A DNA stretch of 59,512 nt, counting the filler. It is 3 parts of 3 records of this genome, joined end to end, with 100 filler letters (N's around TTAATTAATTAA, not from the genome) between each part and the next. Parts side by side here need not be neighbours in the genome. Positions count along the whole stretch, not along the records: positions 28,491 to 42,822 come from SRR20825019_1931; 2 more parts are not named here. One strand, 5' to 3'. Shown one piece after another: positions 30,855 to 42,688 of the stretch (its first letter is position 1; the number at the start of each line of letters is the position of its first letter). Under the pieces are notes generated by a model that was not told where the DNA came from, searched no databases, and was given only the letters and a program-made list of their open reading frames with translations. The position numbers and the translations under genes were made by a program.

Positions 30855-31556
30855 ATGCAAATGCTGCCAGAGACAGTGCAAACGATGATTGCGCCCGGCG
30901 CGCCGGTTGGCGCCCAGTTGCACGGCATTCTGCGTGAGCTCATTCTTCACAATGACCTGCCGCCCGGCTCCAGGCTTTCCGAGTCTGATCTGGCGGCCCG
31001 CTTCGCCGTCAGCCGCCAGCCGGTGCGTGAGGCATTCATCAAGCTTTCCGAGGAAGGCCTGCTGGAGATACGCCCGCAGCGCGGAACCTTCGTGCGCCGG
31101 ATATCGCAGGCCGCCGTCATGGATGCCCGCTTCGTGCGCGAGGCGATCGAGGCCGACATCGTCAAGCTTCTGGCCGCCAAACCCGATGCGGGGCTCATTG
31201 ATGAATTGCGGCTGCAGCTTGAAGAACAGCGCGAGGCGGCGCGCACCGACGCCGCCCGTTTCATCAAGCTCGACGAACTGTTTCACAAGACGCTGGCTGA
31301 CGCTGCCGGAAAGGCGCGGGCCTGGGCCCTGATCGAGGGGCTGAAGGTGCAGATGGACCGGGTGCGCTATCTCAGCCTGCTGCGTTTTCCGATGGTCAAG
31401 CTGACCGCCCAGCACGAAGCCATCGTCGAGGCCATCGGAGCCGGCGATCAGATAACTGCGGAAGTCGCCGTGCGCGGACACCTGCGTGAAATCCTGAGCG
31501 ACCTGCCCGCGATATTCAATGAAAAGCCTGAGTTTTTCGAGGAGCCGGGACGCTAG
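30855..31556 (+). CDS. GntR/FadR family regulator
   Basis: LSE..LA..F.VSRQPVREA HTH plus FCD domain. GGGAGG RBS; the start could be 30861. Confidence 0.92.
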   Translation: MQMLPETVQTMIAPGAPVGAQLHGILRELILHNDLPPGSRLSESDLAARFAVSRQPVREAFIKLSEEGLLEIRPQRGTFVRRISQAAVMDARFVREAIEADIVKLLAAKPDAGLIDELRLQLEEQREAARTDAARFIKLDELFHKTLADAAGKARAWALIEGLKVQMDRVRYLSLLRFPMVKLTAQHEAIVEAIGAGDQITAEVAVRGHLREILSDLPAIFNEKPEFFEEPGR

Positions 31557-31608
31557 CCCCGGACATTGCCACCGGGGTGGATCCCCGCCGTCTGAATGGG
31601 AGGACGAA

Positions 31609-32592
31609 ATGAAATACATCTCCAGTCTAAAGAGCATAGCGCTTGCCGGCGTTGCCGCAAGCCTGATGGCAGGCTCAGCGCTTGCCGCCGATTACACGCT
31701 CAGCGTCAACACGGCGCTGGCGACCACCGACCCGCTCTACAAGGGCCTTGAAGCCTTCCGCGACAATGTTGCCGAGGCCTCCGACGGCGCGCTCGAAGTG
31801 CGCCTGTTCCCGAATTCGCAGCTTGGTCCCGACGAGGACGTGCTGGAGCAGGCCCGCGCCGGCGCACCGGTTGCCGTCGTGGTCGACGGCGGCCGCCTTG
31901 CCGTTTTCGTCAACGAATTCGGCGTACTGGGCGCGCCCTACCTCGCCAATGGCTATGACGGCATCCGCAAGGTCGTCACCTCGGAGATGTTCGACGAATG
32001 GGCCGAAAAGCTGAACGATGAAGCCGGTCTCGACGTCTTGAGCTTCAACTGGTGGCAAGGCGAGCGCCACCTGCTGACCAAGAAGGAAATCAAGGGTCCG
32101 GACGATCTCGCTGGCGTGCGCATGCGCACCCCCGGCGCGCCGGTCTGGACCGGCACGATCGAAGCCATGGGCGCGACGCCGACGCCGATGCCCTGGGGAG
32201 AAGTCTATTCCGCGATCTCCTCCAACGTCATCGATGGCGCCGAAGCCCAGCTTCCCGCCGTCGTCGGCGCCAAGCTCGACGAGGTGATCACCAACATCAC
32301 GCTGACCGGCCACATCAACCTGATCACCGGCCTGATCACCTCCGCCGGATGGGTCGATTCGCTGCCGGAAAACCTGCAAACGGTCCTTCACGAGGAAGCG
32401 CTGAAGGCCGGCGACATCGCCTCCTACGGCACCAGGGACGCGCTGGCGAGCCTCGAACAGCAGTTGAAGGATAGCGGCGTGATGGTCGAGGAGATCGACG
32501 TCACCCCGTTCAAGGAAAGAACGGCCGTCGTCTATGACAATCTCGGCTATGGCGACCTGCGCGACAAACTTCAGGCGATCGCCGCGCAGTAA
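31609..32592 (+). CDS. dctP: TRAP transporter substrate-binding protein (probably a sugar acid)
   Basis: Signal peptide, FPNSQLG, GERH, MRTP, GATPTPMPWGEVY. Next to uxuA. Confidence 0.92.
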   Translation: MKYISSLKSIALAGVAASLMAGSALAADYTLSVNTALATTDPLYKGLEAFRDNVAEASDGALEVRLFPNSQLGPDEDVLEQARAGAPVAVVVDGGRLAVFVNEFGVLGAPYLANGYDGIRKVVTSEMFDEWAEKLNDEAGLDVLSFNWWQGERHLLTKKEIKGPDDLAGVRMRTPGAPVWTGTIEAMGATPTPMPWGEVYSAISSNVIDGAEAQLPAVVGAKLDEVITNITLTGHINLITGLITSAGWVDSLPENLQTVLHEEALKAGDIASYGTRDALASLEQQLKDSGVMVEEIDVTPFKERTAVVYDNLGYGDLRDKLQAIAAQ

Positions 32593-32737
32593 ATCCGGCG
32601 GATCTGCTGAAGCCACCCGGCCGCGCCTTACTGCAAAGGGCGCGACCGGACACCCTATCCGGCTTCCCCCGCGGGAAGCCCAAGGCAAACATGCCGGGGA
32701 GCGTTCCGCTGCTCGCGCCATATCGGGAGGGGCCACC

Positions 32738-33262
32738 ATGCCCGGTTTCCTCGCAAGGATCGAGTATGTCGCAGGCGCGATCCTGCTTGCGGTCATCACC
32801 TTTCTGGTCTTCATCGCCGCGACCATGCGCTTCTTCGGCCATCCGCTGATCTGGTCCGTCGACCTGGCGCAGCTTCTGTTCATCTGGCTCTGCTTCTTCG
32901 GCGCTGCCCGCGCCATGCGCGAGCGGGGGCATCTGGGCGTCGATTTTCTGGTTCGGCCGTTCCCGCACCGCTACCGGCTGGCGCTGGAAACAGCGCTCGC
33001 CGCCCTGTTTCTGGCCTTTCTGATGGTGCTTGCCTATGAGGGCTACAAGCTGACCATGCTCAACAAGGAGCGCCAGTTTGGCGATTCCGGCCTTTCCTAT
33101 GCCTGGGTGACGATTGCCGTGCCCGCCGGCTGCGTGATGCTGTCGATCTCGATCCTCGGCAATCTCTGGCAGGCCTGGCGCAATGTGAAGGACCGGACGC
33201 TGGTGTTCACCCGCACCGCCGCCTACGACGAGCCGGTGATCCACCCCGGCGCGGCGGAGTAG
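32738..33262 (+). CDS. dctQ: TRAP small permease
   Basis: Four TM segments, W..DLAQLLFIW, HLGVD. RBS present. Confidence 0.9.
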   Translation: MPGFLARIEYVAGAILLAVITFLVFIAATMRFFGHPLIWSVDLAQLLFIWLCFFGAARAMRERGHLGVDFLVRPFPHRYRLALETALAALFLAFLMVLAYEGYKLTMLNKERQFGDSGLSYAWVTIAVPAGCVMLSISILGNLWQAWRNVKDRTLVFTRTAAYDEPVIHPGAAE

Positions 33263-33266
33263 ACCG

Positions 33267-34547
33267 ATGGCCCTGATCGGTATCGTGTTCTTCGCCCTGA
33301 TGCTGCTTGGCGCACCGATTGCCTTCGCGATCGGGATATCGGGTTTCACCTTCTTTCTGACCTCGGACATCATGCCGGTTTCGATCGGCGTCCAGAAGAT
33401 CGCGACCGTCTCGCAGAGCTTCCCGCTGCTGGCGGTGCCGTTTTTCGTGCTGGCAGGCCACCTAATGAACGAAAGCGGCATCACCGACCGGCTGTTCACC
33501 TTCTCCAAGGTGGCCGTCGGCTGGATGGCCGGGGGTCTGGCGCAGGTCTCGATCATCCTGTCGACGCTGATGGGCGGCGTCTCCGGCTCGGCCGTTGCCG
33601 ATGCGGCGATGGAAGCGCGCGTGCTCGGCCCGCAGATGATTTCAAACGGCTATTCCAAGGGCTATTCCTCAGCCGTGATCGCGATGTCCTCGCTGATCAC
33701 CGCGACCATTCCGCCGTCGATCGGCCTGATCCTCTATGGCTATGTCGGCCAGGTCTCGATCGGCCGGCTGTTCATGGCGGGCATCGTCCCCGGCGTGCTG
33801 ATGATGGCGTTCCTGATGGTCGCCGCCTGGCTGGTCGCCCGCAAGCGCAACTACGTCATGAGCGATATGAGGAAGCCGACGCCCGGCGAACTCGGCCGCG
33901 CTGCCTGGGGCGCCAAATGGGCGCTGCTGTTTCCCGTGCTTCTGATCGGCTCGATCCGCGGCGGGCTGTTCACGCCCTCGGAAGTCGGCGCGTTCGCGGT
34001 GGTCTACGCGATCGTCGTCGGCGTCTTCGCCCACCGGGTGATGACCTTTGCGACGATCAAGCGCGCCTTTGGCCATGCGCTGTCGGATATCGGCCTGATC
34101 ATGCTGATCATCCTGATGTCGGGCATGATCGGGTTCGCGATCATCTTCCTTCAGGTGCCGCAGAGTGTCGCCGGCTTCATGCTCGAAAGCCTCGCCAACC
34201 CGGTTCTGATCGTCACCGTGATCCTGATCAGCCTGTTCATTGCCGGCCTGTTTTTCGAAAGCACGATCCTGGTTCTGCTGCTGACGCCGATCCTCGTGCC
34301 GGTCGTGGTCAAGGCGGGCGTCGACCCGGTGCATTTCGGCATCCTGATGATGACCATCGTCACCTTCGGCAGCATGACGCCGCCGGTCGGCGTCGCGATG
34401 TTCACGGTGTGCAGCCTGCTCGATACCAAAATCGAGGACTATGTCAGGGAATCCTGGCCGTTCATCGCCGCCATCCTGGCGCTGGTGGCGCTGCTTCTGT
34501 TCGTGCCGGGCATCGTGCTGTTCCTGCCGAACCTGATGTACGGATAG
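33267..34547 (+). CDS. dctM: TRAP large permease
   Basis: LLAVPFFVLAG, SGSAVAD, IPPSI, DPVHFG, TPPVG. Confidence 0.95.
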   Translation: MALIGIVFFALMLLGAPIAFAIGISGFTFFLTSDIMPVSIGVQKIATVSQSFPLLAVPFFVLAGHLMNESGITDRLFTFSKVAVGWMAGGLAQVSIILSTLMGGVSGSAVADAAMEARVLGPQMISNGYSKGYSSAVIAMSSLITATIPPSIGLILYGYVGQVSIGRLFMAGIVPGVLMMAFLMVAAWLVARKRNYVMSDMRKPTPGELGRAAWGAKWALLFPVLLIGSIRGGLFTPSEVGAFAVVYAIVVGVFAHRVMTFATIKRAFGHALSDIGLIMLIILMSGMIGFAIIFLQVPQSVAGFMLESLANPVLIVTVILISLFIAGLFFESTILVLLLTPILVPVVVKAGVDPVHFGILMMTIVTFGSMTPPVGVAMFTVCSLLDTKIEDYVRESWPFIAAILALVALLLFVPGIVLFLPNLMYG

Positions 34548-34743
34548 GCGTCTCGCGCGGGAAGATACCCGTTTCAGCCCCCCGGCGAACAAATATCCCT
34601 GTGATCCCGAATGACAACTTGGAGATAGTTGAACCGCGCCCCCTGATCGGTTTAGTGCAGCACATACCAAAGCGCGCCACATTCGGGACGTTTCAGCGCG
34701 CCGGATTGCAAGCAACGGCAGGATGCCGCAGGGGATATCGTTG

Positions 34744-36051
34744 ATGAACAAATCGGGTGAACTGAGCCTGCTTCACCGCTGGTTTCGCGGCCTGTCTCTG
34801 CGCGCCTGGCTGATCGTCGGCTTCATGATGGCGCTGCTGCCGGTCGCGACCCTTTCGGGCTTCTGGTATCTCGACTATCGCGATCAACTGCGCGAACCCT
34901 TTCGGCAGGTCCTCCACATCCAGCACAACGTGTCGCTGGCGCTGGAGCGGATCCAGGGCAATCTCTGGAATATCGCCACGGACGTCAACGATTTCGCGCA
35001 AACCGGCGATGAAAGCTACCGCAATCGTTTCGAGGTGGCGGAGCGCGAGATCGCCGCCAACCTGCGCGACCTGGAGATGATAACGGAGGCGTATCCCTCG
35101 TTCGATCCAGTGCTTGAGGGCGTGCGCCAGCAATGGGCGTTGCTGCTCGATGCCGCGTCAAACGTCAGGCCTCAGCCCGGCACAGCCGATCAATCGGTGA
35201 TGCGCTTCGAAAGCGTGATCGGCGAAACCGGCAAGCGCGTGGAAAGCATTGCCGAGAGCATGCGCCTGATGAATGAGGAGAGCCACCTGGAAGCGCTTGC
35301 CACGATGGAACGCCTCGACCGCTTTGCCGCGATTGCGGGCGTTCTGGCGCTGGCGTTCGCGGGGATCGGCATAGTCATCATCGACCAGGCGCTGATCCGC
35401 AGCACCGACAAATTGGTCGAGGGCGCGCTGCTGGTTGCCGGCGGCACGCGCAATCGCGAAATCGAGGTGCAGGTCCCGCCGGAACTTGCCTCGGTGGCGC
35501 AGGCCTTCAACACCATGCTCAAGCAGATCAACCAACAGGAAAACGCCCTCGCCGCGGCCGCGCGCGCCGACGGGCTGACGGGCTTGCTCAACCGCCGCGA
35601 GTTCGACCGGGCAATCGACGAGGCCATCGCCGTGGCGCAGGAGAGCGGCGAGCCGTTCTCGTTTCTGATGATCGACGTCGACCATTTCAAGCAGTTCAAC
35701 GATACCCACGGTCACCTCGCGGGCGATGACGCGCTCAGGCAGGTGGCCGAGACGATCGCAATGGCCGCGCGCGCAACCGACCGGGCATATCGCTATGGCG
35801 GCGAGGAATTCGCGATGATCCTGCCTGGGCTCAGAACCTACGAGGCAACAGCGATCGCCGAGCGTTTGTGCAATACCATCGCCGCCCAGACGCTGATCCT
35901 GCCCGACGGACAGAAGCAGACGCTGACGGTCAGCATCGGCATTTCCGTCTTCAGCCCACGGGTGTCGCCGCCCAATATCATCGAACTCGCCGACCGCGCG
36001 CTCTATGCCGCCAAGCTGCAGGGCCGCAACCAGGTGAAGGTCACGAGCTGA
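34744..36051 (+). CDS. Membrane-bound diguanylate cyclase (periplasmic sensor, HAMP, GGDEF)
   Basis: Two TM segments, DGLTGLLNRR, DVDHFKQFND, RxxD I-site and GGEEF. Start approximate. Confidence 0.92.
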   Translation: MNKSGELSLLHRWFRGLSLRAWLIVGFMMALLPVATLSGFWYLDYRDQLREPFRQVLHIQHNVSLALERIQGNLWNIATDVNDFAQTGDESYRNRFEVAEREIAANLRDLEMITEAYPSFDPVLEGVRQQWALLLDAASNVRPQPGTADQSVMRFESVIGETGKRVESIAESMRLMNEESHLEALATMERLDRFAAIAGVLALAFAGIGIVIIDQALIRSTDKLVEGALLVAGGTRNREIEVQVPPELASVAQAFNTMLKQINQQENALAAAARADGLTGLLNRREFDRAIDEAIAVAQESGEPFSFLMIDVDHFKQFNDTHGHLAGDDALRQVAETIAMAARATDRAYRYGGEEFAMILPGLRTYEATAIAERLCNTIAAQTLILPDGQKQTLTVSIGISVFSPRVSPPNIIELADRALYAAKLQGRNQVKVTS

Positions 36052-36062
36052 GCGGCTGTTCT

Positions 36063-37061
36063 TCAGCCCTGCTCGACCGCCTCGATTGCGCTCATCCCTC
36101 CGACGACGGGCGCAAAATCGGACCAGACCGCCCGCGCCCCCGCGCGCCAGGCGTCCATATCCTCCGGCTCCAGGAAGGTCGCGCCATTGGCCTTGGCAAG
36201 GGCTACCGATTGCGCCTCGTCCTCGAAGATCAGGCGATTGAAATAGAGCGCCGCTTCGGATGAGATGGCGCTGAGGACGGCCTGCGTGTCGGGGTCCAGG
36301 CTGTTCCAGAAGCCGGCGGAAAAATAGATCACCCCGGAGGCCCGGATATGGCCGGTCTCGGTCATGAACGGCACAACCTCGTAAAGCCTGAATCCGGCAT
36401 AGGCCGATTTCGTCAGATCCATCGCATCCGCCACCCCGGAGGCCAGCGCATTATAGGTTTCGGTGATCGGAATGCCGACCGGCGTCGCGCCATAGGCGCT
36501 CCACAGGCGGGTGTGGAGGGGCGTATTGATGACGCGGATGGTCTTGCCCTCCATCTGCCCGGGCCGCGTGATCGGCTCCTTGGCAAGCAGGTTGCGGGCG
36601 CCGTAATCGATGAAGCCGCCGACGATGAACTGCTCGCGCGCAAGCTTTTCCGAAAAGTCTTCGCCGACCGGACCGTCGACCACATCGCGAAGATGACCGG
36701 CATCGCGAAACAGGAATGGCAGGTCGAGAAGCTGCAATTGCGGCACCCACGCCGAAAGCGCCGAAACGGTGGAGAGACTGGCCTGCACCGATCCAAGGCG
36801 GATATTTTCCGCCACCTGCTTTTCGCCGCCCAGCGCGCCATTGGTCACGATCCGGAAACGGAACCGCCCCGGAAGCCGCCGCTCGGCCTCATCAGCAAAG
36901 AAGCGCCAGACCCGGGTTTCGGGCTTGTCCTCGCCGAGAAGCGAGGCGACGACGATATCGCGCGTGGCGGCGTTGGCCGTCCGGATAGTGGCAGGGGCGG
37001 CAAGAAATACTCCGGCGGCGGCGGCGGTTTTGAGCAATTCGCGACGGTTGAGAGAAGACAT
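36063..37061 (-). CDS. dctP: TRAP substrate-binding protein with Tat signal
   Basis: NRRELLK Tat motif, NGALGGE, DLPFLF, KTIRV, ETYNALASG. Confidence 0.9.
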   Translation of the reverse strand: MSSLNRRELLKTAAAAGVFLAAPATIRTANAATRDIVVASLLGEDKPETRVWRFFADEAERRLPGRFRFRIVTNGALGGEKQVAENIRLGSVQASLSTVSALSAWVPQLQLLDLPFLFRDAGHLRDVVDGPVGEDFSEKLAREQFIVGGFIDYGARNLLAKEPITRPGQMEGKTIRVINTPLHTRLWSAYGATPVGIPITETYNALASGVADAMDLTKSAYAGFRLYEVVPFMTETGHIRASGVIYFSAGFWNSLDPDTQAVLSAISSEAALYFNRLIFEDEAQSVALAKANGATFLEPEDMDAWRAGARAVWSDFAPVVGGMSAIEAVEQG

Positions 37062-37073
37062 GGGGACATCCTT

Positions 37074-38882
37074 TCAGAAAAAAACAGCGAGGACGCTGAG
37101 GACGAACAAGGCGGCGAGAAGCGCCAGAAGAAACGGACGCATCGCCTTAAACAGGGCCTCGGGCGAAAGGCCGGTGACGCCGCCGACCACGAAGACCAAC
37201 ATGCCCACCGGCGGCGTGAGCCCGCCAATCATCAGGTTGACGACCAGGATGACGCCAAAGCGGATCGGATCGATTCCGGCGGAAACGGCGACCGGCAGAA
37301 GCACAGGCCCGAAAAGTAGGATCGCCGCTCCGATATCCATCACCAGACCGGCGAGCAGCAGAATTGCGTTTGCAAGCAGGAGAACGGCAACAGCGCCGCC
37401 TCCGAGCATCATGGCCGCCTGGCTGACCACCCCGGCGATATCGTCGACGGCCAGCAGGAAGGCGACCGGGGCCGCCGCACCGATCAGCAGGCCGATCGCC
37501 GCCGCCTCGGCCGCCGACTGGCGGAAGGTCGCGACAAGGCTCTCCCCGGAGCGACGGGACAGCACGGCCAGGATGAGCGCGTAGGTGGCCGCCAGCGCCG
37601 CCGCCTCCGTGGTGGTGACGATGCCAAGGCGAATGCCGAACACCACGATCAGGCCGAGACCGAAGGCCGGCAGGGCCGCGATCCCGGCGCGCCTGCGCAT
37701 GGCTCTCGAAGCCGGTGGTCCGCCGCTCGGGACAGTCGACACAAACCTTATGGCGACGGCGAGAAAAGCGGCCATCAACAGGCCGGCAAACAGCCCGCCG
37801 ACGAGCAGCGCGCCGACCGAAAGATTGGTCGCCGTCGCCAGGATGAGAAAGGCGATCGATGGAGGAATCACATTGTCGAGAACGGAGGATGCGGCGACAA
37901 GCGCCCCGGCGCGGGCGGGCGGATAGCCGTGCCGCACCAGTTCTGGGTGGAACGTCGAGGCGGCAAAGGCGGCATTGGCGACGGAGGAACCGGACGCCCC
38001 TGAAAACAGAACGCCGGTCAGGAGCGTCGTCTGCGCCAGCCCGCCGCGATAATGACCGACCAGCGAAGCCGCGAATGTCACAAGTTTGCCGGCCGCGCCA
38101 GACAGTTTCAAAAACGCGCCCGCGAGGAGAAAGAAAGGGACCGCCAGCAACAGGAATTTCGACATACCGGCAACGGCATTGACGATGATCGCCTGCTCCG
38201 TCTGCAGCGCGCCAAAGGCGATCGCGACATAGGACGACGCCAGAAAGACGTGGGCGAGCGGCGCGCCCGCCAGCAGACCGAGACCGGCGGCAACCACAAG
38301 CGGCAGGCTTGCCGGCAGTCCGGAACCGATCGCAAGCCGGCCGGCCACCGCGTAGACAACGCCGCCGAAGATCAGGGCGAAAAGCAGCGACCAGCCGGCG
38401 GAACGCTCCAGCCGGCGCAGGCACAGCAGCGCGAGCAACCCCAGACCGCCGAAGGCGGGAAAGGTGAAGCGGACCCACTCCGGCAGCCCGAGCGTCGGCG
38501 ACGTACCGCCGAGCCCCAGGCTCGCCCCGATGCCGCCGAGGAGGAGGATCAGCCCGGCGACAACGCTGACGCCGTCGGCCACCACCCGCAGTCCCCCGGA
38601 TGCGCGACCGGGCAAGCGCTTTGCGAGACCGTCGAACCGCATCGACAGCGGACCGGAGAAGGTCAATGGCAGACCTGCGGAAATCAGTCCGACGTTCAGC
38701 CAGATGCCGAGATCCTCCATGCCGATGACGCCGGTGTGAAAGACATAGCGCAGGACGACGCCGGTCATGACAAGCGCCAGCATCGCCATCAGAATGGCTG
38801 CTGCGAGCAGGCCGAGGGCGGTTTCCAGCCCGTCCGCAAGCCATCCGGCCGCGCGACGAATTGCCGTTGCGGCCAGGGTCAC
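37074..38882 (-). CDS. Fused TRAP permease (DctQ-DctM)
   Basis: N-terminal DctQ-like 4 TM (RYVF) plus LLAVPFFLLAG, SGSSVANAA, IPPSI, TPPVG. Start uncertain; GTG at 38882 is inferred. Confidence 0.88.
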   Translation of the reverse strand: MTLAATAIRRAAGWLADGLETALGLLAAAILMAMLALVMTGVVLRYVFHTGVIGMEDLGIWLNVGLISAGLPLTFSGPLSMRFDGLAKRLPGRASGGLRVVADGVSVVAGLILLLGGIGASLGLGGTSPTLGLPEWVRFTFPAFGGLGLLALLCLRRLERSAGWSLLFALIFGGVVYAVAGRLAIGSGLPASLPLVVAAGLGLLAGAPLAHVFLASSYVAIAFGALQTEQAIIVNAVAGMSKFLLLAVPFFLLAGAFLKLSGAAGKLVTFAASLVGHYRGGLAQTTLLTGVLFSGASGSSVANAAFAASTFHPELVRHGYPPARAGALVAASSVLDNVIPPSIAFLILATATNLSVGALLVGGLFAGLLMAAFLAVAIRFVSTVPSGGPPASRAMRRRAGIAALPAFGLGLIVVFGIRLGIVTTTEAAALAATYALILAVLSRRSGESLVATFRQSAAEAAAIGLLIGAAAPVAFLLAVDDIAGVVSQAAMMLGGGAVAVLLLANAILLLAGLVMDIGAAILLFGPVLLPVAVSAGIDPIRFGVILVVNLMIGGLTPPVGMLVFVVGGVTGLSPEALFKAMRPFLLALLAALFVLSVLAVFF

Positions 38883-38974
38883 AACCGGCACGGCCTGTCG
38901 ACGACGCATGCACGGCCGTCCTGGCGGCAGAGCCATTGCCGGTCTGCGGTTCTCGTCGGGAGGCAAGGCTTCAT
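38879..38974 (-). CDS. Putative 31-aa leader ORF (MKPCLPTRTADRQWLCRQDGRACVVDRPCRL)
   Basis: GGAG RBS 8 nt before the ATG. Its TGA overlaps an in-frame GTG of the permease (GTGA). Confidence 0.45.
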   Translation of the reverse strand: MKPCLPTRTADRQWLCRQDGRACVVDRPCRL

Positions 38975-39045
38975 GGTGCGATCTCCAGGATGTTGCAATC
39001 ACGGAGACCGGCGGAGAAGAGAAACACTATGGCGAAGCGGCCAAA

Positions 39046-39136
39046 TTTTCCGTTCCTACGCCGGCATGACCCGGATCAGGTTCAAGGGTCCGGCTCCACG
39101 CCGTCTCAGCATCGCATGATGCACCCCTCGGAATAG
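39046..39136 (-). promoter_or_regulatory. TPP riboswitch (THI element)
   Basis: Minus strand reads TTCCGAGGGGTGC...GCTGAGA...ACCCTTGAACCTGATCCGGGTCATGCCGGCGTAGGAACGGAA. All hallmark blocks are present, with P1 TTCCG/CGGAA. Confidence 0.95.
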
Positions 39137-39261
39137 TCAGGTTTTGTCCGCCTTTCAGGCCTCTGTCAATGGCATGGCGCGTGCGCGGCGCCCGGTGGCG
39201 GGTACTTCGACAGCCGGCGATATCCGGAAAAGCCTGTCGGGAACACGCTATCGGCGCTGGC

Positions 39262-40401
39262 TCACTGAAGCCTGAGCAACAGAGCCATCGACGGTTCGCC
39301 CGTGACCTCCAGCCCGTTCTGCCTTTGGTAGGCGGCGATCGCCGCGCGGGTTTGATCGCCGAATACGCCGTCGACGGTGCCTGCGTCGTAGCCCGCCGCC
39401 GCAAGCCGCAATTGCAGCTGCTTGCGCTGGTCGGCGGTGAAACCATAACCATCCGCGGGAAAACCGCCCCTCAGCGGGCCGGCGCCCGCAATCCGGTCGG
39501 CGAGGTATCCGACGCCCAGCGCATAATTGGTCGAATTGTTGTAGCGCTTGATGACGTTGAAATTCGGCCCCACGACAAAGACCGGACCGCCGGGCTGGGG
39601 CTGTATTCTGGTGGTTGCGGAGGCCGCGCCCGGCGAACCTTCCTCGCCGCCCCATGACTGACCTTTGCGCCATCCGGAGCGGGCAAGATAATTGGCCGTG
39701 CTCGCAAGCGCGTCGGTCGGGTCGCTGTCCCAGATATCGCGTCGCCCGTCACCGTTGAAATCGACCGCGTAAGCCAGGTAGGAGGTCGGAATGAACTGGG
39801 TGTGGCCCATGGCGCCGGCCCAGCTTCCCGTCATCCGTTCGGGTGCGATATCACCGTTTTGCAGTATCCTCAGCGCCCCGACCAACTGGTTTTCGAAGAA
39901 CGCCCCGCGCCGCCCGTCAAAGGCCAGCGTGGAGAGCGAGGAGACCACCGGGATACTGCCGCGCCGCTCGCCATACATGCTTTCCAGCCCCCATATGGCG
40001 ACAATGACATTGGCGTCGACACCGTAGGTCGCCTCGATCCGCTCCAGAACATCGCGATAGCGGGCATAGTTGGCGCGCCCCTTGGCGACCCGCTCGTCGG
40101 ATGCGGCGATGGCCAGATAATCTTCCAGCGTGCGGGTGAATTCGGTCTGGTTGCGATCCCGTTCGATGACGCCCGGCGTGTAGCCGGCATTGGCGAAGGC
40201 CGCCGTCAGCGTTCCGTCGGAAATTCCGCGTGTTGCGGCGCGGTTCTTGAACCCGACCACCCAGGAATCCCATGCGGGATTGGCAACCGGGCGCATCGCC
40301 GGATCGGAGACGGGCGAAAGGCCTCCGGCCGAATTGCCTGCGCAGGCCGAAAGCAGCGAGGCGAGCGCCCCGAGAGAAAACGCGCGCCGTGTCAGATACA
40401 T
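39262..40401 (-). CDS. Lytic murein transglycosylase (MltB-like) with PG-binding domain, lipoprotein
   Basis: TRR plus LSAC lipobox, IWGLES, GSWAGAMGHTQFIP, DFNGDGRRD, YNNS, C-terminal DGVFG..TR.AI. Confidence 0.93.
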   Translation of the reverse strand: MYLTRRAFSLGALASLLSACAGNSAGGLSPVSDPAMRPVANPAWDSWVVGFKNRAATRGISDGTLTAAFANAGYTPGVIERDRNQTEFTRTLEDYLAIAASDERVAKGRANYARYRDVLERIEATYGVDANVIVAIWGLESMYGERRGSIPVVSSLSTLAFDGRRGAFFENQLVGALRILQNGDIAPERMTGSWAGAMGHTQFIPTSYLAYAVDFNGDGRRDIWDSDPTDALASTANYLARSGWRKGQSWGGEEGSPGAASATTRIQPQPGGPVFVVGPNFNVIKRYNNSTNYALGVGYLADRIAGAGPLRGGFPADGYGFTADQRKQLQLRLAAAGYDAGTVDGVFGDQTRAAIAAYQRQNGLEVTGEPSMALLLRLQ

Positions 40402-40564: not shown

Positions 40565-42688
40565 TCAGTCGTCATCCGTATCGTAATATTTGTCGCCGTA
40601 GTGGGCGGCATAGCCATAGCCATAACCGTAATTATAGCCGTATCGCTTGAACCCGTTCGGATCGATCTGGTTCAGGACCAGGCCCTCGATTTTGCCTTTT
40701 TCAAACGAGCGGATCGCCTCTTCGGCCTGATTCTGATGGGTTGAATCCCATTTGACGATGAAGAGGATGGAATCGACAAACTGGCTGAGTACGCGTGCAT
40801 CGGGAACGATAAGCACCGGCGGCGCGTCAATTATGATGAAATCATACTTGGAGCGAGCCTCGCGGAGAAATTCGTCCATTCTTCTGGACGAAAGAACATC
40901 CGCCGCATTTTTCGTCGAACGTTCACCGAACAGAATGTCGATATCGAGTTCATCATGGCGGAAAACGGTTTCCTCCAGCGACTTCCTCCCCGAAAGCACG
41001 GAAATCAGGCCTGCATCGGTTCTGGAATTGCCGAAATACCAATGAAACGTCAACCGTCGCAGATCGCCTTCGACCAGAAGGACCTTCTTTCCCATACTCA
41101 CAAAATTGAGCGCCAGGGCGATACTGCTCGTTGTCTTGCCCTCGCCGGGGATGGAGGACGAAAGCATTATCACCTGCGGGGGCTTGTCGAGATTGGCGAG
41201 CAGAACCGACGTTCTGAGATTGCGTACCGCCTCGGCAAACGGCGACGTCGAATGCGTCTGAAGGTAGTGGAAGAAATCGCCCCGATGTTTCGCCGGCACC
41301 AGAGGCAACATGCCAACCACCGGCAAGCCTGTCAGTTCCTCGAGTTCCTGCGATGTCCGGAAGGTCTTGTTCCGCATCTCGAGAAGCAGGCTGAGCAGGC
41401 AGCCGAAAACGACGCCCAGAAGTCCGGCAAGAATAATAATCCTGTTCTTGTTCGGCTCGCTCGGGCCGACAGGCACGACCGCGTAGGAAAGAATGATGCT
41501 GTCTGCCTGCTGCACCCCCTGCTGGGCGGAGGTTTCCTTGAGGCGGGCCAGAAAATATTCGTAAAGCGTCCGGTTGGCTTCTGCTTCCCGCGTCAACTGC
41601 TCCAGTTCGAGATAGGAAGAGCTTTCGGTCTGAATTTTTGTCTCGAGCGCCGCTTCCGCTGTCTCCAATGAGGCCAGTTGGCTCTTGATCTCGGCTGAGT
41701 CCCTGCGACGATCGGCGAGCAGCGTCTCCATCCTCGTGTTGAAACGCGATGCAGCGAATCTATTGCCTGGAGCGGTAGCCGAGAGGTCGATGAGCGTCGG
41801 ATCGCCGAGCAGAACGGCTTTGTCCTCATAATCCGATGCTTGCTCGAGCTTCGCGAACAAAGCGTCGGAGGCTTCGACCCTCTGGCGGGTCTCGCTGATG
41901 CGATCGCGAATCGACTTCAATTGCCGCTCCAGCCCGCTCAGCACTTCCGGCGTGGTCAGCGGCGTATCGGTCTTGAACTGCTTTACCGCATTCTCGGATT
42001 TTCCGAGCGCGACCTTCAGTTCGGCAACCCTTTCGCTGAGCCAGTCGATCGCATCGACCGTGGCGCCGCGTTTGACGTCGACCTGGCGCTGCACATACTG
42101 TTCGGCGATCGTGTCGGCGACCAGCGCCGCCTTTTCAGGGTCCTCTGAACTCACGGTTATTCTAAAGGTGGTGGTATTGGGAACAACGTTTGCGGTAAAT
42201 CGGGTAAGCAGCGCGCTCACCACCCGGTCGCGGGTCCTGTCCGGATCAACGGGTCTCGGGGCGGGTTGCGAACCCGAAGACAACAGGCCCCTGAAATAGG
42301 CGACCAGCCTGGCAAACGCGGTCGGCTCCCTCAAGGCCCAGTTAAATTCCGGATCCGCGGTCAGATCGAGAATATCGACAACGTTCCCGAGCAGAATTCG
42401 TGACTTGATCACCTCGATTTCGGTTTGCAGCGCGACATCGTCCGTGCCAAGCTGCGCGAGCACGCTGGGCAGATCGATGATCTTCTCCGCCTGCCCGCTC
42501 ACCATCGTGACCGAAGATGCCCGATAGATCGGCGTTGTCATCCTGGTGGCGTAGTACCCGCCCGCCAGAACGAACAGGATGCATATCCCCGCAATCAGAA
42601 ATTTACGCCTCCAGAAAACAAAAAATATCTTCTGAATATCTATTTCGTCATTTTCAGTATTGGTTTTGCTATTCAGCATGTTGCTCAA
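40565..42688 (-). CDS. wzc: Polysaccharide co-polymerase/tyrosine autokinase (Wzc/ExoP family)
   Basis: EIDI N-terminus, two TM segments, Walker A GEGKT, DLR, IIDAPP and a Tyr-rich tail YGYNYGYGYGY. Confidence 0.9.
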   Translation of the reverse strand: MSNMLNSKTNTENDEIDIQKIFFVFWRRKFLIAGICILFVLAGGYYATRMTTPIYRASSVTMVSGQAEKIIDLPSVLAQLGTDDVALQTEIEVIKSRILLGNVVDILDLTADPEFNWALREPTAFARLVAYFRGLLSSGSQPAPRPVDPDRTRDRVVSALLTRFTANVVPNTTTFRITVSSEDPEKAALVADTIAEQYVQRQVDVKRGATVDAIDWLSERVAELKVALGKSENAVKQFKTDTPLTTPEVLSGLERQLKSIRDRISETRQRVEASDALFAKLEQASDYEDKAVLLGDPTLIDLSATAPGNRFAASRFNTRMETLLADRRRDSAEIKSQLASLETAEAALETKIQTESSSYLELEQLTREAEANRTLYEYFLARLKETSAQQGVQQADSIILSYAVVPVGPSEPNKNRIIILAGLLGVVFGCLLSLLLEMRNKTFRTSQELEELTGLPVVGMLPLVPAKHRGDFFHYLQTHSTSPFAEAVRNLRTSVLLANLDKPPQVIMLSSSIPGEGKTTSSIALALNFVSMGKKVLLVEGDLRRLTFHWYFGNSRTDAGLISVLSGRKSLEETVFRHDELDIDILFGERSTKNAADVLSSRRMDEFLREARSKYDFIIIDAPPVLIVPDARVLSQFVDSILFIVKWDSTHQNQAEEAIRSFEKGKIEGLVLNQIDPNGFKRYGYNYGYGYGYAAHYGDKYYDTDDD

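Follow-up and report, generated by a model that had tools for sequence, protein, structure and literature searches.

Transporters controlled by thiamine pyrophosphate (TPP) riboswitches have been described in several classes, namely the ATP-binding cassette (ABC) systems ThiBPQ and ThiXYZ, the energy-coupling factor (ECF) systems ThiT and YkoEDC, the sodium/solute symporter (SSS) ThiV, and CytX, PnuT and the TonB-dependent Omr1. Here we describe a window of 59,512 bases (the whole stretch of DNA that was analysed) in which a TPP riboswitch precedes dctQM and dctP, the two genes of a tripartite ATP-independent periplasmic (TRAP) transporter. The locus shares with the described systems the THI element in the 5′ leader, a probable place in a salvage regulon and co-occurrence with thiM, thiD and thiE, and in five relatives the TRAP genes stand in one operon with those for ThiXY; it differs in its transporter class, a binding-protein-dependent secondary carrier, and in its predicted cargo, an acid from the thiazole side of thiamine.

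Among the DctP-type TRAP systems, which include SiaPQM for sialic acid, DctPQM for C4-dicarboxylates and the sugar-acid solute-binding proteins (SBPs) 4ln5 and 4n15 solved by the Enzyme Function Initiative (EFI), the locus has in common the fold, both ligand-site arginines and a periplasmic SBP, and with some members also the fusion of the small and large membrane subunits. It departs from them in its low identity to the solved SBPs (19-27%), in having Asp-Leu in place of a Glu-Asn pair, in riboswitch control, and in a twin-arginine translocation (Tat) signal rather than a Sec signal. A third point of comparison is the sulfonate TRAPs, exemplified by the isethionate-binding DctP 8t9t; taurine and 2,3-dihydroxypropanesulfonate (DHPS) TRAPs are further systems of this kind. 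The likeness here is an SsuD-like monooxygenase beside the orthologous TRAP in five loci, a neighbour that one would look for in a sulfonate importer, but our DctP matches 8t9t (70 bits) no better than it matches many carboxylate-binding proteins, and the riboswitch-linked hosts lack that monooxygenase. Finally, the thiM-type translational TPP riboswitch of E. coli, as we understand it, shares with this locus a Shine-Dalgarno (SD)-sequestering helix downstream of the aptamer and a leader without a terminator, whereas the masked SD in our locus serves a leader open reading frame (ORF) joined to the first structural gene by an overlapping stop and start.

The excerpted text of Paerl 2018 (PMC5899164) reports that E. 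coli lacking thiG grows on sub-picomolar carboxythiazole (cHET) and ascribes its uptake to transport systems of 'unknown sequence identity', and in the available portion of PMC12236431 cHET is given at picomolar levels in seawater. The marker-gene lists of 2024 and 2026, so far as their excerpts extend, name no thiazole transporter, and the 2026 paper takes thiM as the marker for thiazole uptake. TRAP systems are not listed among B1 transporters in the excerpts of the literature searched, nor do those excerpts link a TRAP to a TPP riboswitch or to thiazole uptake or hold a characterised example, as the initial annotation had supposed; the tables of the 2013 riboswitch-regulon survey (Sun et al., PMC3766115), with their 19 TPP-regulated transporter orthologues, and curated databases such as RegPrecise and SEED lie outside the scope of that search, and an earlier in-silico prediction is possible. 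We favour the reading that the locus encodes a high-affinity TRAP importer under repression by TPP, whose cargo is the thiazole moiety, probably as cHET, and which would feed ThiM and ThiE; we put the probability of this reading at roughly one half.

A TPP riboswitch ahead of a two-gene TRAP operon

The elements of the locus, in the order of transcription, are as follows.

39036..39138, minus strand: TPP riboswitch aptamer (THI element), RF00059, 77.5 bits
38980..39009, minus strand: SD-sequestering hairpin, in minimum free energy (MFE) and centroid folds and in 9 of 9 leaders
39002-39009, minus strand: anti-SD GGTCTCCG, pairing with the SD side at 38980-38987
38982-38986, minus strand: GGAGA within the SD side
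38879..38974, minus strand: leader ORF (uORF), 31 codons followed by TGA; the ATG stands 7 nt behind the masked SD, and the TGA overlaps the dctQM GTG (GTGA)
37074..38882, minus strand: dctQM, a fused membrane subunit of 602 aa when read from the overlapped GTG, PF04290 and PF06808 in one ORF
36063..37061, minus strand: dctP substrate-binding protein with twin-arginine signal, 332 aa, PF03480 at 186.6 bits and NF037995 at 191.7 bits

When the full length of the window was scanned with Rfam cmscan, RF00059 gave the only match above the gathering threshold (77.5 bits against a cut-off of 54.3, E 1.3e-13), and this match covers model positions 1-105 of 105. The aptamer lies in the 5′ leader on the same strand as the TRAP genes, ends 62 nt ahead of the leader ORF ATG, and is predicted from its sequence to respond to TPP. 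A DNA-level plasmid search matched nothing beyond the riboswitch itself, which shares about 90% identity with TPP riboswitches carried by Sinorhizobium and Rhizobium plasmids; a simple scan found no promoter match upstream of it.

The longest dctQM ORF (37074..39002) matches DctQ (PF04290, 58.7 bits) over residues 74-198 and DctM (PF06808, 282.1 bits) over residues 242-637, and TIGR00786 at 282.7 bits. We place the start at the GTG because the stop/start overlap described below is kept in four of four loci and gives aligned N-termini in proteins of 598-602 aa; the in-frame ATGs at 38939 and 38912 are alternative candidates. The dctP gene begins 12 nt after the dctQM stop, and its product opens with MSSLNRRELLK; all 34 of the aligned homologues keep both R6 and R7, and a precomputed match to the Tat-signal model PF10518 is recorded for two of the homologues. 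Searches with ThiX, ThiY, ThiM, ThiE and ThiD (tblastn, E≤1e-8) found no homologues across the 59.5-kb window. The picture drawn in the initial annotation, a canonical THI element directly upstream of a fused DctQM and a Tat-exported DctP with no thi enzymes nearby, is thus borne out.

The masked ribosome binding site opens a leader ORF

The initial annotation also proposed that a GGTCTCC anti-SD pairs with the GGAGATC ribosome binding site to shut off translation. The pairing itself stands: both the MFE fold and the centroid fold predicted for the leader contain the hairpin, and its 8-bp consensus stem is kept in all nine aligned leaders, which come from riboswitch-TRAP and riboswitch-thi-TRAP operons. 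No double compensatory changes occur in the stem among these nine leaders, so the support comes from conservation, not covariation. A simple scan for terminator-like sites found nine, all within coding sequence and none in the leader; transcription termination is therefore unsupported as the mode of control, and control by translation is the better reading.

What needs amending is the gene that the masked site serves, since it begins the uORF and not dctQM directly. The ATG at 38974, 7 nt behind GGAGA, is out of frame with dctQM and opens a uORF of 31 codons, whose TGA overlaps the in-frame dctQM GTG at 38882 in the sequence GTGA. Three other Martelella-type loci have uORFs of 35, 12 and 10 codons, unrelated in sequence, each ending in ATGA or GTGA on the dctQM start. 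The stop/start overlap is thus present in four of four Martelella-type loci, and the overlapped start yields DctQM proteins of 598-602 aa whose N-termini can be aligned. We rejected the idea that the out-of-frame ATG results from a frameshift or an error of sequencing, because four separate assemblies share the uORF and its overlap. On a Neorhizobium plasmid the equivalent ATG is directly in frame with dctQM (622 aa), and four thi-operon relatives have a uORF of 13-24 codons that ends at most 13 nt from the nearest thiX start candidate, on either side. This arrangement suggests that the uORF and dctQM are translationally coupled through termination and re-initiation.

Homologous loci and operon arrangements

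We assembled 35 homologous loci, the window included, with a DctP at least 47% identical. The homologues came from four sources. A search with each species represented by a single genome gave 17 loci, and annotated plasmids gave 11 records, 7 of them taken into the set. Of 401 genomes sampled evenly from the same order, 13 had a match, 12 of these being new, and a 401-genome sample of the class gave one new match, at 51% identity, with neither riboswitch nor thi genes. All 35 were scanned with Rfam at the gathering threshold. Three homologues of 42-43% identity (L050-L052) were kept out of the count, and the Rfam scan found no TPP riboswitch at them. In what follows, loci and genomes carry our own L and G handles where they need to be told apart.

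RF00059 lies upstream on the same strand in 15 of the 35 loci, in three arrangements:

Riboswitch, (leader ORF), dctQM-dctP: window, L001, L005, L008, L039 (5 loci)
Riboswitch, 110-aa NIPSNAP protein (PF07978, 99.9 bits), dctQM-dctP: L043, L044, L045, L046, L049 (5 loci)
Riboswitch, thiX, thiY, thiM, thiE, thiD, dctQM-dctP: L002, L007, L017, L037, L042 (5 loci)

The TRAP genes are the last two of the thi-TRAP operons, whose successive frames either overlap or lie close together. L004 repeats this order of genes but is broken at a contig end, and three further plasmid records, judged by coordinates alone, have a riboswitch about 6 kb upstream of dctP. A deltaproteobacterial metagenome-assembled genome (MAG) with a DctP of 47% identity has the order thiM-dctQM-dctP, and no riboswitch was found at this locus even at E≤1. 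The genome of Martelella mediterranea has five TPP riboswitches, which precede thiXY, thiM-thiE, thiB, thiC and this TRAP; it is a Rhizobium-type salvage operon split into separately switched units. ThiB stands behind its own riboswitch in G001, G003 and G004. We consider it very probable that the TRAP belongs to the thiamine-salvage regulon.

Several observations on these loci stand apart from this question. The NIPSNAP genes (L043:6906-7238, plus strand, and their counterparts in L044, L045, L046 and L049) are 76-95% identical among the five loci, and G002, G003 and G005 have NIPSNAP homologues at other sites, with only 43-46% identity. The L005 contig comes from a MAG labelled Melioribacteraceae, and its DctP is 83% identical to that of the window and groups within the Martelella clade; the contig or the bin label is probably wrong. 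The ThiM of the thi-TRAP operons (L017:2018-2764; G003, G004, G365, G202, G234) is divergent, matching thiM models in two pieces with a gap at about positions 125-155 and scoring below the TIGR00694 cut-off and above that of NF006830. G202 and G234 have it in addition to a canonical ThiM, and around this second, divergent gene there is thiM-thiD only. The operons encoding the ThiX permease and ThiY binding protein (L017:250-2021 and relatives) have no ATPase gene (thiZ) beside them. An int-alpA RNA match lies downstream of the thi-TRAP operon of L042 (12018-12083, plus strand), and a cobalamin riboswitch of 117.6 bits (L052:3527-3752, minus strand) lies about 3.5 kb from the 42%-identical TRAP homologue. 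A DctP homologue on a plasmid of Neorhizobium galegae HAMBI 540 (L040:7965-8882) has neither the N-terminal signal region nor a dctQM beside it and is probably a remnant.

Thiamine genes of the hosts

The thi gene content was counted in the genomes of relatives, the window's own organism standing outside these counts. ThiG (PF05690) was not found in 10 of the 12 genomes with a riboswitch-linked TRAP; ThiC was found in three of the 12, and ThiM in all ten that were searched. Two of the hosts, G001 and G396, have thiC with no thiG found and, judged by gene content, are predicted to need only thiazole. Among seven hosts of a TRAP without the riboswitch, ThiG was found in four and not in three, one of the latter being a 1.8-Mb MAG. 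The pattern in the riboswitch-linked hosts fits thiazole dependence, with the statistical weakness discussed below.

The cargo of the transporter

The uptake of some thiamine-salvage compound is well supported, because the riboswitch is kept in 15 of 35 loci, the TRAP is fused into thi operons, and the thiG and thiM content of the hosts agrees with it. The initial annotation went further and proposed an anionic B1 precursor or breakdown product as the cargo, bound through a conserved arginine of DctP in the motif KTIRV. That residue, R176, is indeed retained: it and a second arginine, R156, align with arginines of the solved proteins 4n15/4ln5 and 4n8y, and both are invariant in 34 of 34 and in 22 of 22 alignment rows. 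With two conserved arginines, an acid fits as the ligand.

The identity of that acid cannot be carried over from the nearest solved or named relatives, which are too distant. DctP is named only generically in every source; the closest recorded protein, 95% identical, is named from Martelella soudanensis, and among solved structures 4n15/4ln5 gives the best sequence match (E ~5e-39). The AlphaFold (AF2) model has a mean pLDDT (predicted local distance difference test score) of 85.6, and its top Foldseek matches are all DctP-family SBPs, at 19-27% identity and model-normalised TM-scores of 0.74-0.86.

It is the gene context that points to thiazole. ThiXY already supplies the pyrimidine in the same operons, which leaves one missing step, the entry of thiazole, for the TRAP to fill; thiM is the one thi gene with which the TRAP stands in a two-gene pairing; and two hosts appear to make pyrimidine but not thiazole. 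Since the arginines call for an acid, and cHET is an acid usable by ThiM-dependent salvage at picomolar levels, we infer that a carboxylated thiazole is the most economical ligand.

The system would then work as a relay. When TPP is low the aptamer would be empty, the SD free and the short leader ORF translated; ribosomes terminating at its TGA, which overlaps the dctQM start, would re-initiate on dctQM, with dctP following 12 nt later. The Tat-exported DctP would bind the ligand through its two conserved arginines and pass it to the fused DctQM permease. In the cytoplasm, on the presumed route, ThiM would phosphorylate the ligand and ThiE would couple the product to hydroxymethylpyrimidine pyrophosphate (HMP-PP). 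At high TPP the aptamer would fold, GGTCTCC would mask the SD, and the entire relay would stop.

A number of observations weigh against carboxythiazole as the cargo. Orthologous TRAP operons keep the riboswitch in 15 loci, but 20 of the 35 are without it, three of these being broken by contig ends. The thi gene content of the hosts is likewise divided: most riboswitch-linked hosts lack thiG and all those searched have thiM, but two of the 12, G007 and G365, have ThiG, and in the order sample ThiG was not found in 215 of 401 genomes (54%), a background that may in part reflect incomplete assemblies. Within that sample ThiG is absent from six of seven riboswitch-TRAP hosts, an enrichment that is not significant (one-sided Fisher p = 0.088). 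Against such a background we have dropped the absence of ThiG as strong proof. In DctP itself, an invariant D215-L216 stands where three aligned solved DctPs have a Glu-Asn pair after the 'vDa' motif; we take the Asn of the pair to help hold the carboxylate in SiaP, presuming also that its position maps onto that protein.

The remaining difficulties come from five loci without the riboswitch (L003 from Shinella, L034 from Thioclava, L035 from Marinibacterium, L047 and L048), in which dctQM-dctP lies behind a pair of genes for a signal-less SsuA/NMT1-like protein and a luciferase-like monooxygenase (LLM) whose score of 424 bits with the SsuD model falls short of the cut-off of 510.

L003:2134-4123; L034:4050-6085; L035:4015-6072; also L047 and L048: SsuA-like and SsuD-like pair ahead of dctQM-dctP

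The DctPs of these loci interleave in the tree with the riboswitch-linked ones. L003, for example, falls in a well-supported clade (96/89) with L039 and L004, and its DctP is 77% identical to that of L004 and 74% to that of L039, which is itself 62.5% identical to that of the window. No alignment column separates the 11 thi-context rows from the five monooxygenase-context rows, and 78 columns are invariant, including R156, R176 and many aromatic and histidine residues. The interleaving and the lack of a separating column suggest that the ligand is probably the same in both contexts, and carboxythiazole gives a desulfonating enzyme no obvious role. Moreover the Shinella host (G005) has thiG and thiC, and thiM was not found in it. 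The carboxythiazole reading does not account for the SsuD-like context, and the interpretation in the initial annotation is supported in part.

As to the surroundings of these five loci, L003 has a divergent ArsR/BigR-like regulator and a YfcG-like glutathione S-transferase (GST), and a gamma-glutamyltransferase gene follows in the Thioclava locus. L038, which is not one of the five, retains a fragment of the monooxygenase gene.

The alternatives to carboxythiazole that best withstand the evidence, unlikely as we consider them, are other thiamine-related ligands: hydroxyethylthiazole (HET), which is neutral, oxidised thiazoles (thiazole acetic acid, for example), and thiamine itself or its phosphate esters, for which the TRAP would be a second route beside ThiBPQ. 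The riboswitch and the thi operon context suit any thiamine-related cargo, thiamine monophosphate (TMP) and TPP are anionic, and the available text of the OarX paper (PMC11223231) argues that oxidised thiamine or thiazole derivatives are salvaged. There are objections, however: ThiB has its own riboswitch in the three genomes named above, neutral HET would not need the two conserved arginines, and an acid at the hydroxyethyl position would have to be reduced before it could serve ThiM, and the operons hold no such reductase.

The monooxygenase brings up a cargo from the other half of the vitamin. Sulfite cleavage of thiamine yields pyrimidine methanesulfonate, and the TRAP could import this or a similar anionic pyrimidine-side breakdown product, which an SsuD-type monooxygenase would desulfonate and ThiD recycle. 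The five loci that put the orthologous TRAP directly after the SsuD-like monooxygenase and the cytoplasmic SsuA/NMT1-like protein speak for such a sulfonate, as do the occurrence of this pairing in two separate DctP branches, the divergent regulator of L003, the lack of any residue column that splits the two contexts, and the presence of ThiD in the riboswitch-thi-TRAP operons. We nonetheless rate it as rather improbable, since the riboswitch-linked hosts have no orthologue of the monooxygenase (in G001-G003 the closest proteins reach 33-36% identity, and G004 gave no match at E≤1e-30), ThiXY is already a pyrimidine route in the same operons, the only two-gene thi pairing is with thiM and not with thiD or tenA, and two hosts make their own pyrimidine yet lack thiG; no report of salvage of this compound was found in the literature searched.

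It is very improbable that the cargo has nothing to do with thiamine, being some ordinary organic acid or sulfonate, and that the riboswitch link is a lineage-specific accident or serves another purpose. In favour of this are the 20 of 35 homologous loci without the riboswitch, the Bosea genomes, in which the TRAP adjoins tRNA genes and a PhnM-like amidohydrolase, and the generic name that the protein bears everywhere. Against it, riboswitches accompany the TRAP in three different arrangements of genes and across several branches of the DctP tree, the TRAP is fused into thi operons with overlapping or closely spaced frames, and a distant lineage independently pairs it with thiM.

A broader form of the carboxythiazole reading would accommodate the monooxygenase. 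Tentatively, and with less confidence than we attach to cHET import itself, we suggest that this may be both the first identified high-affinity cHET transporter and the first TRAP in any vitamin-salvage regulon, controlled by a relay from riboswitch to leader peptide to gene, and that in prototrophs it may feed the SsuD-like monooxygenase in a catabolic or sulfur-scavenging route for the same thiamine-derived compound.

Neighbouring genes

The genes flanking the riboswitch-TRAP locus in the window are unrelated to it:

34723-36051, plus strand: GGDEF diguanylate cyclase, convergent with dctP
39262-40401, minus strand: SLT_2 lytic transglycosylase with peptidoglycan-binding domain
40565-42688, minus strand: Wzz/GNVR/AAA_31 polysaccharide co-polymerase or tyrosine-kinase-like protein

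Another TRAP system, this one unfused (dctP, dctQ, dctM), lies 1.5 kb from the locus, at window positions 31498-34547 on the plus strand. Its DctP shares only about 29% identity with that of the riboswitch-linked system, and the same paralogue accompanies L001, L005 and L008.

Implications

What appears to be new here is a putative TPP-regulated precursor transporter of a new transporter class, together with a new detail of the expression platform. If the carboxythiazole reading is correct, TRAP systems would join the repertoire of vitamin transporters, the leader-ORF relay would be a compact case of riboswitch control passed on through translational coupling, and DctP could be used as a cHET sensor. 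The TRAP locus is a good candidate for the importer of the thiazole half of vitamin B1. Environmental studies, as represented in the excerpts available, use the kinase gene thiM as their sole marker of thiazole salvage, and in communities of the sea and the rhizosphere an importer defined by sequence would mark thiazole auxotrophy and exchange directly.

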